Source: an uncultured Actinomycetota bacterium (GTDB taxonomy: Bacteria; Actinomycetota; UBA4738; HRBIN12). Taken from it: a DNA stretch of 64,000 bases. Location: positions 333,104 through 397,103 of the forward strand of contig CAWIUW010000015.1 of NCBI GenBank assembly GCA_963839395.1, in the 5' to 3' direction. How positions within the stretch are numbered: the first letter of the stretch is position 1; every line of letters begins with the position of its first letter. The notes below the pieces were generated by a model that was not told where the DNA came from, did not search any database, and saw nothing but the letters and a program-made list of their open reading frames with translations. Of this stretch, positions 6,428-26,549 are shown in pieces. The position numbers and the translations under genes are program-made.

Positions 6428-9400
6428 ATGACGCGCTGCGCCGCCTGCGGGGCGGGCAACCCCGAGGGCGCGAGGTTCTGCAATGCCTGCGGAGAGCGCT
6501 TGGATGCGCCCCCCGCGTCCGGAACGCAGTCCGGCGAACGACGCGTGGTCACGATGCTCTTCTGCGACGTACGCGGATCGACCGCGATGGCTGAGGAGCT
6601 CGACCCCGAGGAGTGGACCGACGTCATGAACGAGGCGTTCGCCCACCTCATCGCGCCGGTCGTTCGACACGAGGGCACGGTGGCCCGTCTCATGGGCGAC
6701 GCGATCCTCGCCTTCTTCGGTGCGCCCACCGCCCACGAGGACGACCCGCAGCGCGCGGTGATGGCAGGGCTCGAGATCGTCGCCTCGATCGCCGCGCTCC
6801 GCGAGAAGGTCGCCCGGGAGCGAGGGCTCGACCTGAACGTCCGCGTCGGTATCAACACCGGCCCTGTCGTCGTGGGCGACGTGGGCTCGGAGCTGAAACA
6901 GGAGTACTCGGCGATGGGTGACGCCGTGAACGTCGCCGCCCGCATGGAGCAGACCGCGGAGCCCGGCTCCGTGCAGATCACGGAGGACACCTACCGGCTC
7001 ATCGCCGACCTCTTCGAGGTGGAGGCGCTGGGCGGCGTCGAGCTCAAGGGGAAACGCCGTCCCGTGGAGTCCTATCGGGTGCTCGGTCGCCTGGACGCTC
7101 CGTGGACCGTTCGCGCTGCTCGGCGCCTTGACGCGCCGCTCGTGGGACGTGAAGACGAGATGCGCGTGATCCGCGCCGCCCTCGAGGGCGCTCGCGAGGA
7201 TCGCGGACGCGTGCTGCTCCTGTGCGGCGACCCCGGTCTGGGCAAGAGCCGGTTGATCGAAGAGGCCAACGCGATCTGGTCGGAGCTGGAGCCCGGCGAC
7301 GATCGCCGCTGGGATTTCTGGCGGTGCGTCCCCTACGACTCGATGCAGCCGTACGCGCAATACCGCCGACTGATCAGCGAGCGCGCCGGCGTCAGGGAGA
7401 CGGACGCGGCCGAGACGGTGCGGATGAAGATCGCGGACCTGATGCGGGCGATCGCTCTCCCGGGTTGGGAAGAGACGAGCACACGGGTCGCGCGGGCGCT
7501 CCTCGGTGTGGAGCTGCCGGACGAGCCGCCGCTGGAAGGCGAGGAGTTCCAGCGAAAGGCCACGGAGCTCGTCGTCGGCTCGACGGTCGCCCAGGGGGGA
7601 CGACGCCTGATCGTCTTCGAGGACCTGCACTGGTGCGACCATGCCTCGCTCGACCTGGTCCGGGCGACGACCGAGCTGGTCGTGGACGCGCCGATCGTCG
7701 TCCTGATCTCGTTCCGTCCCGACCGCGAGGCCGTCTCGTGGGGGTTGCGCGAGTGGGTCGAAACCGATCTGGCGGAGCACGCGATCGTGCTCGACCTGGA
7801 GCCGCTCACGGCGGGGGAGAGCGACGAGCTCATCGGCGCCTTCCTCCCGGTCCCGGGGATGACCGAGGAAGACCGCCGCCGGATCCTCGGCAAGACGGAG
7901 GGCAACCCCCTTTTCCTCCAGGAGGTGGCGCGGGCGCTGATCGACGGCGGCCTCGTCGAGCGCGCGAACGGCGGGTGGCGGATGACCGGGGACGCGGCGG
8001 AGATCGCGATCCCCGACACGATCCAGAGCCTGATCACGGTCGGTCTGGACCGGCTGCCCGGGACGGCTCGCGGGACCGTGCAGACGGCCGCCGTGATCGG
8101 TCGGACCTTCGCCGAGGAGCTGCTGGTCGCCGTGGTCGGCCGGCCGGAGGTCCGCGAGGATCTGGACGAGCTGGTGCGCCGCGACCTGATCCGGGTGTCG
8201 GAGGACGGCGTGCAGGGCGAGTTCACGTTCCGGCACGCACTCACGCAGGAAGCCGCGTACGGCACGCTCCTGGCGAAGCATCGGAAGGCCACGCACCGCC
8301 GGGTCGCGGAGGTGCTCGAAGAGACCGCCCGAGAGCGCCTCGAGGAGGTCGCGCCGCTGCTCGTCCGGCACTTCTCCGAGGCCGGCGAGGACGAGCCGAC
8401 CCTCACCTACTCGGCGATGGCCGGAGACGCCGCGGCGCGCCTCCACGCGAACGCCGAAGCCGAGGCCCACTACCGAACGGGGATCGACGTGGCGCGCCGG
8501 ATCGAAGCGCCGCCGTCGCTCCTCCGGACGATGTACGAGCGGCGGGGCAGCGCGCTGGAGCTGCTCGGGCGCTACGACGACGCGATCGCGAACTACGAGG
8601 AGATGCAGGCCGAGGCCGTGACGCGAGGTGACGAGGCGATGGAGCTGGCCGCCAGCTCGATGATCGCGCTCCTGTACTCGACGGCGACGCCGAAGTTCGA
8701 TCCGCCGCTGGGACGTCGACTGTCGGAAGAGGCGGTCGTGATGGCGCGCCGGATCGGGGACCGTGCAGCCGAGGCGCGTGCCCTCTGGAACATCGTGGTG
8801 GCGAACGTCTACGGCGGAGGAGACGCTTCCCGAGCTGTGGAGGCGGGCGAGGCCTCCCTGGCGATCGCGCGCGAGCTGGGCGAGCGCGAACAGGTCGCGT
8901 TCACCCTGAACGATGTGACCCGTGCGTACATGTCGCGCGGCGACTTCACGACGGCTGCCGAACGCCTGGCCGAGGCACGTGAACTCTGGGAAGAGCTCGA
9001 TAACCGCCCGATGCTCGGCGAGAATCTCACGGTCGGCAGCGCGATGCACATGCTCCACGGCGACTTCGAGGCCGCGCTCGCCGACGCGGGACACGCCGCC
9101 GAGATCTCCGCCTCGATCGACAACGCGTGGGGTGAGTCGCACGCCCTGATCACGGTCTACCGCGTCGAGCTCGAGCTCGGGCGTCTCGGAGCGGCGATGG
9201 ACACGATCGAACGAAGCATGGAGCTCGGAGAGCGGGGTGGCTTCGCCTACGCGGGGATCGCCACGCGAGCCGATCTGGGGCGGCTGATCGCCTATCTCGG
9301 AGACGGTGAACGGGGCCTCGCCCTGGCCGACGAGTCGATCGAGGTCGCGCTCGAGCGCGTTCCTCCGGCTGCTTCCATCTCGCACGTTGCGCGCGCGAAC

Positions 9401-22187: not shown

Positions 22188-22493
22188 CTACTTGCCGTTC
22201 GCCTTCCCGGTCCTCTCGGAGACGGCCTTCACTGCCTCCTTGGAGACGGTCTTCACCGCCGCGGTCACGGCCTTCGCGGCTGTCTTCGTCGCCGTCTTCG
22301 TCTCTCCCTCTTTCTCCACGACGTCGAGGATCTTCTTCAGCTTGCTGTGCGCCTTCTTCCCGGTCTGCCCGGTCTTCGCGCTGACGACGATCGGCGGGAG
22401 ATCGGCACCGTCGAAGACGAGCGTGATGTCGTTGGAGTTCTCGACGATCTGGACCTGGAAGCGCGCGGTCCGTTTACCTGCCTTCTTCTTCAT
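22188..22493 (-). CDS. small basic protein with Lys/Ala-rich (histone H1/Hlp-like) C-terminal tail, hypothetical nucleoid-associated protein
   Basis: AGGAGG RBS 6 nt upstream of ATG. Excellent codon bias. The tail is TKTATKTAAKAVTAAVKTVSKEAVKAVSERTGKANGK. Confidence 0.7.
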   Translation of the reverse strand: MKKKAGKRTARFQVQIVENSNDITLVFDGADLPPIVVSAKTGQTGKKAHSKLKKILDVVEKEGETKTATKTAAKAVTAAVKTVSKEAVKAVSERTGKANGK

Positions 22494-22582
22494 CTGCAGC
22501 CTCCTCTGATCCTCAACCTAGTCACTTGAGCGCCGCTCGTCAGAGATCTCGCTCGGTCAGCTACTTCAGGGCGCTCGTCACG

Positions 22583-22655
22583 CGCGCCGGGCAGGATTCG
22601 AACCTGCGACCTGAGGATTAGAAGTCCCCTGCTCTATCCCCTGAGCTACCGGCGC
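22583..22655 (-). tRNA. tRNA-Arg (anticodon UCU)
   Basis: GCGCCGGTAGCTCAGGGGATAGAGCAGGGGACTTCTAATCCTCAGGTCGCAGGTTCGAATCCTGCCCGGCGCG. Confidence 0.9.
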
Positions 22656-23961: not shown

Positions 23962-24054
23962 GACTGGGAAACGGGGCGGATCGACGGGAACCGATGGCAA
24001 TGGTGAGCCCAGCCAAAGGGAGCCGTGACCCGCGGAGATGGCGCTGACGTGAAG

Positions 24055-24128
<74 letters not shown>

Positions 24129-24172: not shown

Positions 24173-24601
24173 TCAGGGAGCCAGCCACGAGAAGGGCTCG
24201 CCGGGCACGTTCCGCAGGACCCAGAACAGTCCGAACGCGACCCCGATCGCCCAGCTAGCCCACCGAGGGGCGCTCCGGACATGGGGAGGATGCCGCCCAC
24301 CGATCCCCGCGAGGCCCACCGACAGCCACGCGGCGACCAGCATCGGGACGAAGAGCACCGTCATCAGGTTGAAGTCGATGGCGGATCGAAGGTCGGCGTG
24401 CAGCAAGGCATGGAGACACCTCAGCGTGCCGCACCCGGGGCAGTACAGGCCGGTCGCCGCGTAGAAAGGACAGACGGGGAAGGCCGTCGCTTCGCTGGGA
24501 TCGACCACGTGGAGCACGACGGCGAACGCGAGGCCGCCGACGAAGAGCGTCGCGTCTCGAACACGAGAGGGTGCGAGCGCGGATAGACCTCCGGGATCCA
24601 T
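24173..24601 (-). CDS. DUF2752-family membrane protein
   Basis: CPFYAATGLYCPGCGTLRC motif plus hydrophobic helices. AGGAG RBS 7 nt upstream. Confidence 0.7.
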   Translation of the reverse strand: MDPGGLSALAPSRVRDATLFVGGLAFAVVLHVVDPSEATAFPVCPFYAATGLYCPGCGTLRCLHALLHADLRSAIDFNLMTVLFVPMLVAAWLSVGLAGIGGRHPPHVRSAPRWASWAIGVAFGLFWVLRNVPGEPFSWLAP

Positions 24602-24609
24602 GCCGGCTC

Positions 24610-25062
24610 CTACGTGAACGTTGGGGAGCTGTTCGTCCCGACGGATCCAGCGACCACGGCGATCCCGACGAGGATCCCGCCCACCGCGCTGATGATGCAC
24701 CACATCTTGGCCTTGCCGGAGGAATCCATCGCGCCGGCGACGTCGCCCACCGCGAGCTTGTTGCTGACCTGCGTCGCGTAGACGATCGCGACGATGCCCG
24801 TCGGGAGGAAACAGAGGAGCGTCACGAGGATCGCCCACACGAGGTAGGTCGGAACGGAAGCAGCAGGGGTCGCCGGCGTCCGTGGGAAGGGAGTGGCGAG
24901 TCCCTGACCGGGCATCGGAGGAGCGGGAGGGAGCCCGGACTCATCGGCCGGTGGTGGGTTCTGCGATCGCTCCCAGGTCTGACCGATGTCGTTCCAACGG
25001 AGCCACGTCCCATCGGGCTGTTGCTGCCACCAGAGGCCGTTCCTGAAGACCGGTTCGCTCAC
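24610..25062 (-). CDS. CD225/dispanin (IFITM-like) family membrane protein with Pro-rich N-terminus
   Basis: LVWAILVTLLCFLPTGIVAIVYATQVSNKLAVGDVAGAMDSSGKAKMWCIISAVGGIL. GGAGGAAGGAG RBS upstream of the GTG at 25062. Confidence 0.7.
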   Translation of the reverse strand: MSEPVFRNGLWWQQQPDGTWLRWNDIGQTWERSQNPPPADESGLPPAPPMPGQGLATPFPRTPATPAASVPTYLVWAILVTLLCFLPTGIVAIVYATQVSNKLAVGDVAGAMDSSGKAKMWCIISAVGGILVGIAVVAGSVGTNSSPTFT

Positions 25063-26472: not shown

Positions 26473-26546
26473 CGGGGCGTAGCGCAGCCTGGCAGCGCAC
26501 GTGCTTTGGGAGCACGAGGTCGCGGGTTCGAATCCCGCCGCCCCGA
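26473..26546 (+). tRNA. tRNA-Pro (anticodon UGG)
   Basis: CGGGGCGTAGCGCAGCCTGGCAGCGCACGTGCTTTGGGAGCACGAGGTCGCGGGTTCGAATCCCGCCGCCCCGA. Confidence 0.9.
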
Positions 26547-26549
26547 CCG

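Follow-up and report, generated by a model that had tools for sequence, protein, structure and literature searches.

A CD225/dispanin gene and a DUF2752 gene form a widespread two-gene membrane module in bacteria

Introduction

Dispanins, a group to which the IFITMs, PRRT1/2, TRARG1 and other proteins belong, are important for antiviral immunity, for synaptic function and in disease, and are thought to have reached animals from bacteria. Acylation of the IFITM cysteines is the work of eukaryotic DHHC enzymes, absent from bacteria. The present work concerns two adjacent genes in a 64-kb stretch of DNA from an uncultured Actinomycetota bacterium (the whole stretch being referred to as the window), the first encoding a protein with the CD225 domain of dispanins and the second a small membrane protein of the Pfam family DUF2752. 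The hallmarks of dispanins are two hydrophobic helices joined by a K/R-rich loop of ~25 aa that carries G-D and A-x6-A motifs (Sallman Almen 2012, PMC3282796). The positions of the CD225 cysteines, two in helix 1 and a third at the start of the second helix, correspond to those of the S-palmitoylated cysteines of IFITMs (PMC4488726, PMC3282796, bioRxiv 10.64898/2026.06.24.734257), and the retention of the C-C motif by bacteria, in which S-palmitoylation is missing, has been raised as a puzzle (Sallman Almen et al. 2012, PMC3282796). In human cells, mycobacterial IFITM homologues exert a moderate restriction of influenza virus and the bacterial di-Cys motif becomes acylated (Melvin et al. 2015, PMC4488726). 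That study, which was carried out in human cells only and contains no mention of the words "operon" or "neighbor", stated that the native function of the bacterial homologues "has not been studied" (PMC4488726). In PRRT1, the first helix of the CD225 fold is re-entrant, with a two-cysteine apex directed toward the centre of the bilayer and a cytosolic G-D loop, and the long tilted second transmembrane helix (TM2) docks in a groove of GluA1 and the small four-helix protein CNIH2 (bioRxiv 10.64898/2026.06.24.734257).

The dispanin of the window resembles PRRT1/SynDIG4, an auxiliary subunit of the AMPA receptor, in its homologous CD225 domain, its Pro-rich N-terminus (cytoplasmic in PRRT1), a first helix that is predicted, at low confidence, to be split at the Cys apex, the G-D loop and a long TM2. 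The difference lies in the partner, DUF2752 being unrelated to CNIH2 and to glutamate receptors, and in that the bacterial pairing is known from genes alone. With IFITM3 and other vertebrate IFITMs the window protein shares the Pfam family, a Cys or di-Cys motif in hydrophobic domain 1 and the G-D loop, but it carries CF instead of CC and is devoid of an endocytic motif and of an interferon context. The term "IFITM-like", which an earlier annotation of the region made from its sequence (the initial annotation) had applied to the protein, is right at the level of the family, whereas the closest solved relative by sequence is PRRT1 and antiviral activity is not inferable. The mycobacterial IFITM homologues, which are likewise CD225 proteins of Actinomycetota, show the same domain plan. 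No mention of DUF2752 or PF10825 was found in the literature searched, and none of bacterial gene neighbours in the consulted publications on dispanins and IFITMs (curated neighbourhood databases lay outside the search), in agreement with the earlier statement that both families are functionally uncharacterised in bacteria.

Conservation of the gene pair

The CD225 and DUF2752 genes lie next to each other in the same order across many bacterial phyla, whatever the N-terminal domain of the dispanin. The evidence comes from two surveys run in opposite directions. In the forward one, a diverse DUF2752 alignment was scanned against one genome per species, and a hidden Markov model (HMM) of CD225, built from the matches of CD225 homologues, was run over all open reading frames (ORFs) of the 80 loci obtained. 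The scans were seeded with the motifs TG[LR][YHA]CPGCG (DUF2752) and C[FC]LP[TFG]GI[VA]A (CD225) and the best 80 matches were kept; the percentages of the surveys describe carriers of these motifs, that is to say, the subfamilies nearest the window proteins. A CD225 ORF was present in 58 of 79 informative species-level loci, and in 57 of the 80 a CD225 gene was located at most 300 nt from DUF2752 against an expectation of at most 0.24 (binomial P ~1e-124, a statistic that ignores phylogenetic relatedness, every locus coming from a different species). The distal flanks of the same loci, 605 kb in all, contained no CD225 gene. All 66 CD225 matches were on the strand of DUF2752, 61 of them upstream and five downstream, and the distance from the end of the nearest upstream CD225 to the DUF2752 HMM match was 11-201 nt. 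The DUF2752 loci were contributed by Actinomycetota, Chloroflexota, Cyanobacteria, Acidobacteriota, Nitrospirota, Planctomycetota, Verrucomicrobiota/Lentisphaerota/Kiritimatiellia, Bacteroidota, Bacillota, Myxococcota, Desulfobacterota and Gammaproteobacteria, among others.

The reverse survey, in which metagenome contigs were seeded with the CD225 alignment and at least 550 nt of downstream sequence was required, led to the same picture: DUF2752 followed immediately downstream on the same strand in 53 of 65 loci, and in 40 of 45 CD225 clusters once these were collapsed at 90% identity. Among 109 pairs the median of the intergenic gap was 13 nt, an upper bound obtained by assuming the most downstream possible start of DUF2752, and 85% of the pairs were separated by at most 60 nt. 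Independent gene calls with precomputed Pfam labels also contain the pair with gaps of at most 3 nt, namely in Streptomyces rimosus, in Dokdonella immobilis, where the dispanin is a zinc-ribbon-CD225 protein, and in a case where a GYF_2-CD225 protein precedes DUF2752. The recurrence of the pair in more than a dozen bacterial lineages means that the two genes almost certainly work together. The initial annotation had built its functional proposal on a conserved pairing and had named a missing statistical association in other genomes as the result that would speak against it; the association is strong in both directions.

A consensus fused query recovered three proteins containing both Pfam domains (P0241, P0247 and P0308), which were rejected as assembly or frameshift artefacts, all of them being singletons. 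Two of the three lose CD225 in the middle of the domain and continue into Arg-rich out-of-frame text, and the third reads through the spacer. The contig of P0308 (L162) has its GMP synthase split into three called fragments (7054-8555), which points to an indel-prone long-read assembly, and this fusion was therefore discounted.

The DUF2752 protein

The window DUF2752 protein matches PF10825 over the full 49-position model (E = 8.1e-17, 61.5 bits against a cut-off of 27) and has 368 homologues. At 50% identity the family comprises 15,871 clusters at E <= 1e-3 and 5,503 at E <= 1e-10, and nearly all of its members are single-domain proteins of 120-190 aa, typically ~140 aa; the longer ones revealed low-complexity extensions and no extra domain. 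The AlphaFold2 model is confident, with a predicted local distance difference test (pLDDT) of 81 and a predicted template modelling score (pTM) of 0.73. Helices are predicted at residues 4-32, 45-50, 55-67, 71-77, 79-101 and 113-130, the first and the last two of these being transmembrane, and the CPGC motif sits at the N-terminus of one of the helices.

Conservation of the family is concentrated in a few polar residues. C54, P55, C57, G58, N78 and R130 are invariant in 135 of 135 sequences, followed by C44 (134), T50 (133), R61 (133), N131 (132), H64 (124) and H68 (110). The invariance of C54 and C57 is partly built into the forward seed, and it is the same in the CD225-seeded set. The loop motif C-x9-CPGCG-x2-R-x2-H-x3-H is near-invariant, as is the entire signature C-P-F...T-G-x-x-C-P-G-C-G-x-x-R...H...N-P with its C-terminal R-N-x-P...L-A-P, which is complete in the window protein. 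The CxxC described by the initial annotation corresponds to C54-P-G-C57, and a third conserved cysteine, C44, is found upstream of it. In 26 DUF2752 proteins from loci without CD225, C44, C54, C57, R61, N78 and R130 are all kept, and T50, N131, H64 and H68 almost as often as in the paired proteins.

Lys and Arg residues average 2.95 for the N-terminus (15 aa), 2.25 for the Cys loop (45 aa), 2.13 for the second loop (10 aa) and 1.13 for the C-terminal tail. Under the positive-inside rule, this distribution places the Cys loop outside, with a predicted topology in which the N-terminus and loop 2 are inside and the C-terminus is outside. In this respect DUF2752 recalls DsbB, VKOR and CcdA/DsbD, small polytopic proteins of the inner membrane in which an essential CxxC or Cys pair lies close to the outer side; the likeness consists of an invariant CPGC in a predicted outside loop, and extends neither to homology nor to a shared fold. 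In DHHC S-acyltransferases, by contrast, a zinc-binding Cys-rich domain faces the cytoplasm. The DHHC motif is absent from DUF2752 and Pfam gives no similarity to those enzymes. No solved structural relative of DUF2752 was found, nor any similarity of sequence or fold to known acyltransferases or thiol oxidoreductases.

The dispanin

The dispanin of the window, for which 129 homologues were retrieved, matches Pfam CD225 (PF04505) at residues 71-135 (E = 1.2e-25, 89.9 bits against a cut-off of 27.1, model positions 3-67 of 68). The profile of the family aligns over the whole domain with human PRRT1/SynDIG4 (chain 9zks_M, E = 1.1e-17). NCBIfam added nothing beyond Pfam for either protein of the pair. 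C84 is invariant in the 142 DUF2752-partnered CD225 proteins; 119 of them continue with a second Cys, forming the CC pair, where the window protein has Phe, and 72 possess a third Cys where helix 2 begins. G106-D107 and A111-x6-A118 are near-invariant in the partner proteins and present in that of the window. The interhelix loop contains on average 3.4 Lys and Arg residues, and charge counts put it inside.

The AlphaFold2 model of the dispanin is of low confidence (pTM 0.31) and breaks helix 1 at residues 84-85, where pLDDT is 45-74. Foldseek gave no significant match with this model, and its low confidence makes Foldseek matches meaningless. Upstream of the domain, a W-rich motif (residues 5-33) that is kept in close relatives is predicted as a four-stranded beta-sheet (strands 5-7, 10-14, 20-24 and 29-33; pLDDT 75-83) and has no Pfam match; in other DUF2752-paired dispanins, zinc-ribbon or GYF_2 domains take its position. 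The linker that follows has a pLDDT of 41-61 over residues 41-70, below 50 for 54-71.

The replacement C85F in the dispanin co-occurs with A62C in DUF2752 (11 of 18 pairs compared with 3 of 89; Fisher P = 3e-8). The pairs concerned all come from the clade of the window itself (the window and L081-L091), which amounts to effectively one event.

Gene neighbourhoods of the pair

No universal third gene accompanies the pair in the surveyed loci, and 150 flanking ORFs from 80 species are spread over 97 Pfam families, mostly of housekeeping type, which indicates that the module is self-contained. Neither a lipid nor a defence theme was detected among these 150 ORFs. Neighbouring genes for patatin, PLA1, GDSL lipase and squalene-hopene cyclase had hinted at lipid enzymes as a theme, which vanished in this flank survey, and Fur-like, Zn-ribbon-DUF4190 and Zn-ribbon membrane neighbours, considered as third genes, were limited to one acidobacterial lineage with 78-100% identity. 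A locus near-identical to that of the window has the pair surrounded by genes for a DmpA-type peptidase, PhzF, a GAF protein and purK/purE.

The acidobacterial lineage just mentioned (L004, L010, L019, L024 and L033, with the metagenome loci L092-L101), together with a metagenome-assembled genome (MAG) of Binatia (L022), carries an enlarged cluster. It consists of a zinc-ribbon membrane protein on the minus strand, a zinc-ribbon-DUF4190 protein with a pilin-like tail on the plus strand, CD225 and DUF2752, sometimes a second zinc-ribbon-DUF4190 gene, and a Fur-family regulator on the minus strand.

DUF2752 genes without CD225 can also occupy stable contexts. In four actinobacterial loci (L064, L066, L071 and L075, from Streptosporangiales, Streptomyces and an uncultured Actinomycetota MAG) the gene lies in the trp-operon region, with a Trp-associated membrane protein, a DUF6704 mini-protein, a DUF4190 protein and trpC/trpB as neighbours. 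In only five of 22 CD225-less loci, DUF2752 adjoins another small two-helix protein, belonging to DUF4190 in L012 (a weak match, below the Pfam cut-off), L064, L066 and L075 and to TM2 in L016. These proteins of the DUF4190 and TM2 families have a CD225-like plan, with a Pro/Gly-rich N-terminus, two hydrophobic helices and a Cys in a hydrophobic helix, and they take the place of the neighbour, but they belong to different Pfam families. No two-helix Cys-bearing neighbour of this kind was found in six Pyrinomonadaceae loci of DUF2752.

A minus-strand gene of Frankia torreyi (L165 4993-6210) encodes a 405-aa protein joining DnaJ and CD225; in its vicinity are an MsrP/MsrQ-like pair (Oxidored_molyb and Ni_hydr_CYTB) and a CD225 gene that is unpaired.

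Phages and mobile elements

The initial annotation had regarded the pair as possibly phage-related, a suggestion that finds no support, and the same applies to a link with mobile elements. Its other proposal, a role in membrane remodelling or envelope stress, may apply, the sequence analyses speaking neither for nor against it. Neither protein has a match in PADLOC or PHROGs, and neither family was found on the viral contigs of IMG/VR. The DUF2752 consensus matched only two of 50,697 phage records, both small unannotated virome fragments, and four of 72,556 plasmid records, all of them actinobacterial replicons (0.29 to 11.85 Mb) that are non-mobilizable; the flanks of the genes are of housekeeping type. 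The two phage records (MT839860.1, 3049-3348, and MT836841.1, 5116-5208) are 7-8 kb entries named "Bacteriophage sp." from human faecal viromes, and their DUF2752-like sequence may reflect bacterial contamination or rare carriage.

How the two proteins may act together

The locus of the window is an instance of a widespread, chromosomal and self-contained two-gene membrane module. It is an ordinary member of it, and the interest lies in the module itself. A partner gene kept in most sampled lineages provides a first concrete handle on the ancestral function of dispanins, and at the same time gives a functional context to DUF2752, a large family (~15,900 clusters at 50% identity). Among the tractable organisms that carry the pair are Streptomyces, Cellulomonas, Lysobacter and flavobacteria. 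In addition, the pairing bears on the puzzle of why palmitoylation-site cysteines persist in organisms devoid of S-palmitoylation (PMC3282796), for which it suggests a candidate explanation.

On the favoured reading, which takes PRRT1 as its precedent and has roughly an even chance of being right, the dispanin and DUF2752 would assemble into a complex in the cytoplasmic membrane, with a housekeeping role. Homology with PRRT1 suggests that the N-terminus and the G-D loop of the dispanin would be cytoplasmic and that its first helix would be re-entrant, with the Cys apex toward the centre of the bilayer. The long second helix might then dock on the three-helix bundle of DUF2752, much as TM2 of PRRT1 does on GluA1/CNIH2. 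DUF2752 would supply an outward-facing Cys3/His2/Arg/Asn site, composed of the loop motif together with N78 and R130-N131, and this putative site could bind a metal or carry out thiol chemistry. The module would in that case serve the housekeeping physiology of the membrane or envelope and not phage defence. Several observations weigh against such a complex. In the predicted topologies, the conserved regions of the dispanin and of DUF2752 lie on opposite sides of the membrane, the structural model of the dispanin is of low confidence, and the pair is known as separate genes, the only fusion proteins being artefacts. About a quarter (~27%) of the DUF2752 genes have no CD225 neighbour, one locus (L148) has six tandem CD225 ORFs for a single DUF2752, and eight others (L018, L048, L056, L074, L119, L126, L152 and L159) have two. 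Unpaired DUF2752 genes and tandem CD225 copies fit a one-to-many relationship, as of an enzyme or chaperone, better than a strict 1:1 complex.

Such a relationship is central to the main alternative, in which DUF2752 is an enzyme or maturation factor that acts on the Cys apex of the dispanin as its substrate, by S-lipidation, disulfide formation or isomerisation, or metal loading. The apex has the conservation that this would require, its first cysteine being invariant, mostly followed by a second and in half of the partners accompanied by a third, at the positions that are palmitoylated in IFITMs; the conservation of CC in bacteria is itself a stated open question (PMC3282796). The invariant set of DUF2752, with three Cys, two His, two Arg and two Asn, is enzyme-like, up to six tandem dispanins can share one DUF2752, the DUF4190 and TM2 neighbours that replace CD225 also bear cysteines, and unpaired DUF2752 proteins exist and keep their invariant residues. 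Nevertheless, the predicted position of the DUF2752 Cys loop is the outer face, whereas the apex of the dispanin enters from the inner leaflet, DUF2752 resembles no known acyltransferase or thiol oxidoreductase, and the covariation of F85 with C62 derives from a single clade. To our knowledge, no bacterial S-acylation of this kind has been described. All in all, this alternative appears rather unlikely. Its broader form, in which DUF2752 would be a new membrane enzyme or a thiol/metal cofactor protein for the Cys apex of dispanin, DUF4190 and TM2 hairpins alike, is decidedly improbable. If it held, the action of DUF2752 would be a bacterial counterpart, with a different catalyst, of the cysteine modification essential to IFITMs; it would explain the conservation of C-C where DHHC palmitoyltransferases are missing, and reveal an ancestral biochemical role of the dispanin fold.

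The two membrane proteins might also be needed under the same condition and be expressed together while acting separately, as the unpaired DUF2752 genes, the ~11% of sampled CD225 clusters that have no DUF2752 nearby and the unpaired CD225 gene of Frankia torreyi could suggest. The fixed order and strand and the near-zero gaps, maintained in more than 12 lineages and in unrelated neighbourhoods, are a pattern typical of products that are physically or mechanistically coupled, and independent action is accordingly given little credence. A defence module directed against phages or membrane fusion, conceived by analogy with restriction by IFITMs, is highly improbable. Most phages enter cells without membrane fusion. 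The homology of CD225 with IFITMs applies at family level only, and the moderate restriction of influenza virus by mycobacterial homologues was seen in human cells (PMC4488726); against this reading stand the lack of PADLOC, PHROG and IMG/VR matches, the negligible and non-mobile representation in phage and plasmid records, neighbours that are housekeeping genes and not defence islands, and the absence of a GC anomaly. The conservation seen here spans phyla and stable contexts, for instance the trp region of actinobacteria, which is also unlike the patchy pattern of defence genes.

The locus in the window and its surroundings

Both genes are on the minus strand, with the dispanin gene first, and their features are collected in Table 1. 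The start codons are backed by close homologues with the same N-terminus, in the case of CD225 by P0121 (100% identical, 150 aa), to which no contig could be matched, and in that of DUF2752 by P0001 (97% identical, 142 aa). Co-directional and almost abutting, the two genes are very probably co-transcribed and translationally coupled. The description of the locus in the initial annotation, including an 8-nt spacing and an AGGAG that overlaps the stop of the upstream gene, is correct to the base; its two family assignments score well above the Pfam cut-offs, and the Pro-rich N-terminus that it reported corresponds to residues 35-69, the W-rich motif ahead of it being absent from that account. 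The window, which has a GC content of 68%, contains one copy of each family. The GC profile around the pair is flat, and a scan of the region for promoters and terminators yielded no informative signal in DNA of this composition.

Table 1. Features of the CD225-DUF2752 locus, in positions of the window
Feature	Position	Strand	Basis
Shine-Dalgarno-like GGGAGGAAGGAG, 6 nt 5' of the CD225 GTG	25080-25069	-	sequence reading
CD225/dispanin gene, 150 aa plus TAG (GTG start at 25062, stop at 24612-24610)	24610..25062	-	ORF, Pfam PF04505, homologues
W-rich N-terminal motif VFRNGLWWQQQPDGTWLRWNDIGQTWERS, CD225 residues 5-33	24964..25050	-	conservation in relatives, AlphaFold2
Pro-rich linker, predicted disordered, CD225 residues 35-69	24856..24960	-	translation, pLDDT
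CD225 domain, residues 71-135: hydrophobic helix 1, loop, helix 2	24658..24852	-	Pfam
Codon of CD225 C84 (Cys apex)	24813-24811	-	translation
AGGAG Shine-Dalgarno of DUF2752, overlapping the CD225 TAG, 5 nt before the ATG	24611-24607	-	sequence reading
Intergenic spacer GAGCCGGC, 8 nt	24609-24602	-	
DUF2752 gene, 142 aa plus TGA (ATG start at 24601, stop at 24175-24173), three predicted transmembrane helices	24173..24601	-	ORF, Pfam PF10825, homologues, AlphaFold2
DUF2752 Cys/His loop, residues 44-68 (C44-P-F, T50-G, C54-P-G-C57-G, R61, H64, H68)	24398..24472	-	conservation, 135 sequences

Seven tRNA genes are found in the window. One of them, tRNA-Gly(TCC) (24054-24125, minus strand), lies only 48 nt past the stop of DUF2752 on the same strand and may share a transcript with the pair, and the region as a whole is flanked by tRNA-Arg(TCT) (22582-22655, minus strand) and tRNA-Pro(TGG) (26473-26548, plus strand). 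Adjoining tRNA-Arg, in DNA that is otherwise of 62-66% GC, there is a 101-aa ORF rich in Lys, Ala and Thr (22188-22493, minus strand), the product of which starts with MKKKAGKRTARFQVQIVENSNDITLVFDG.

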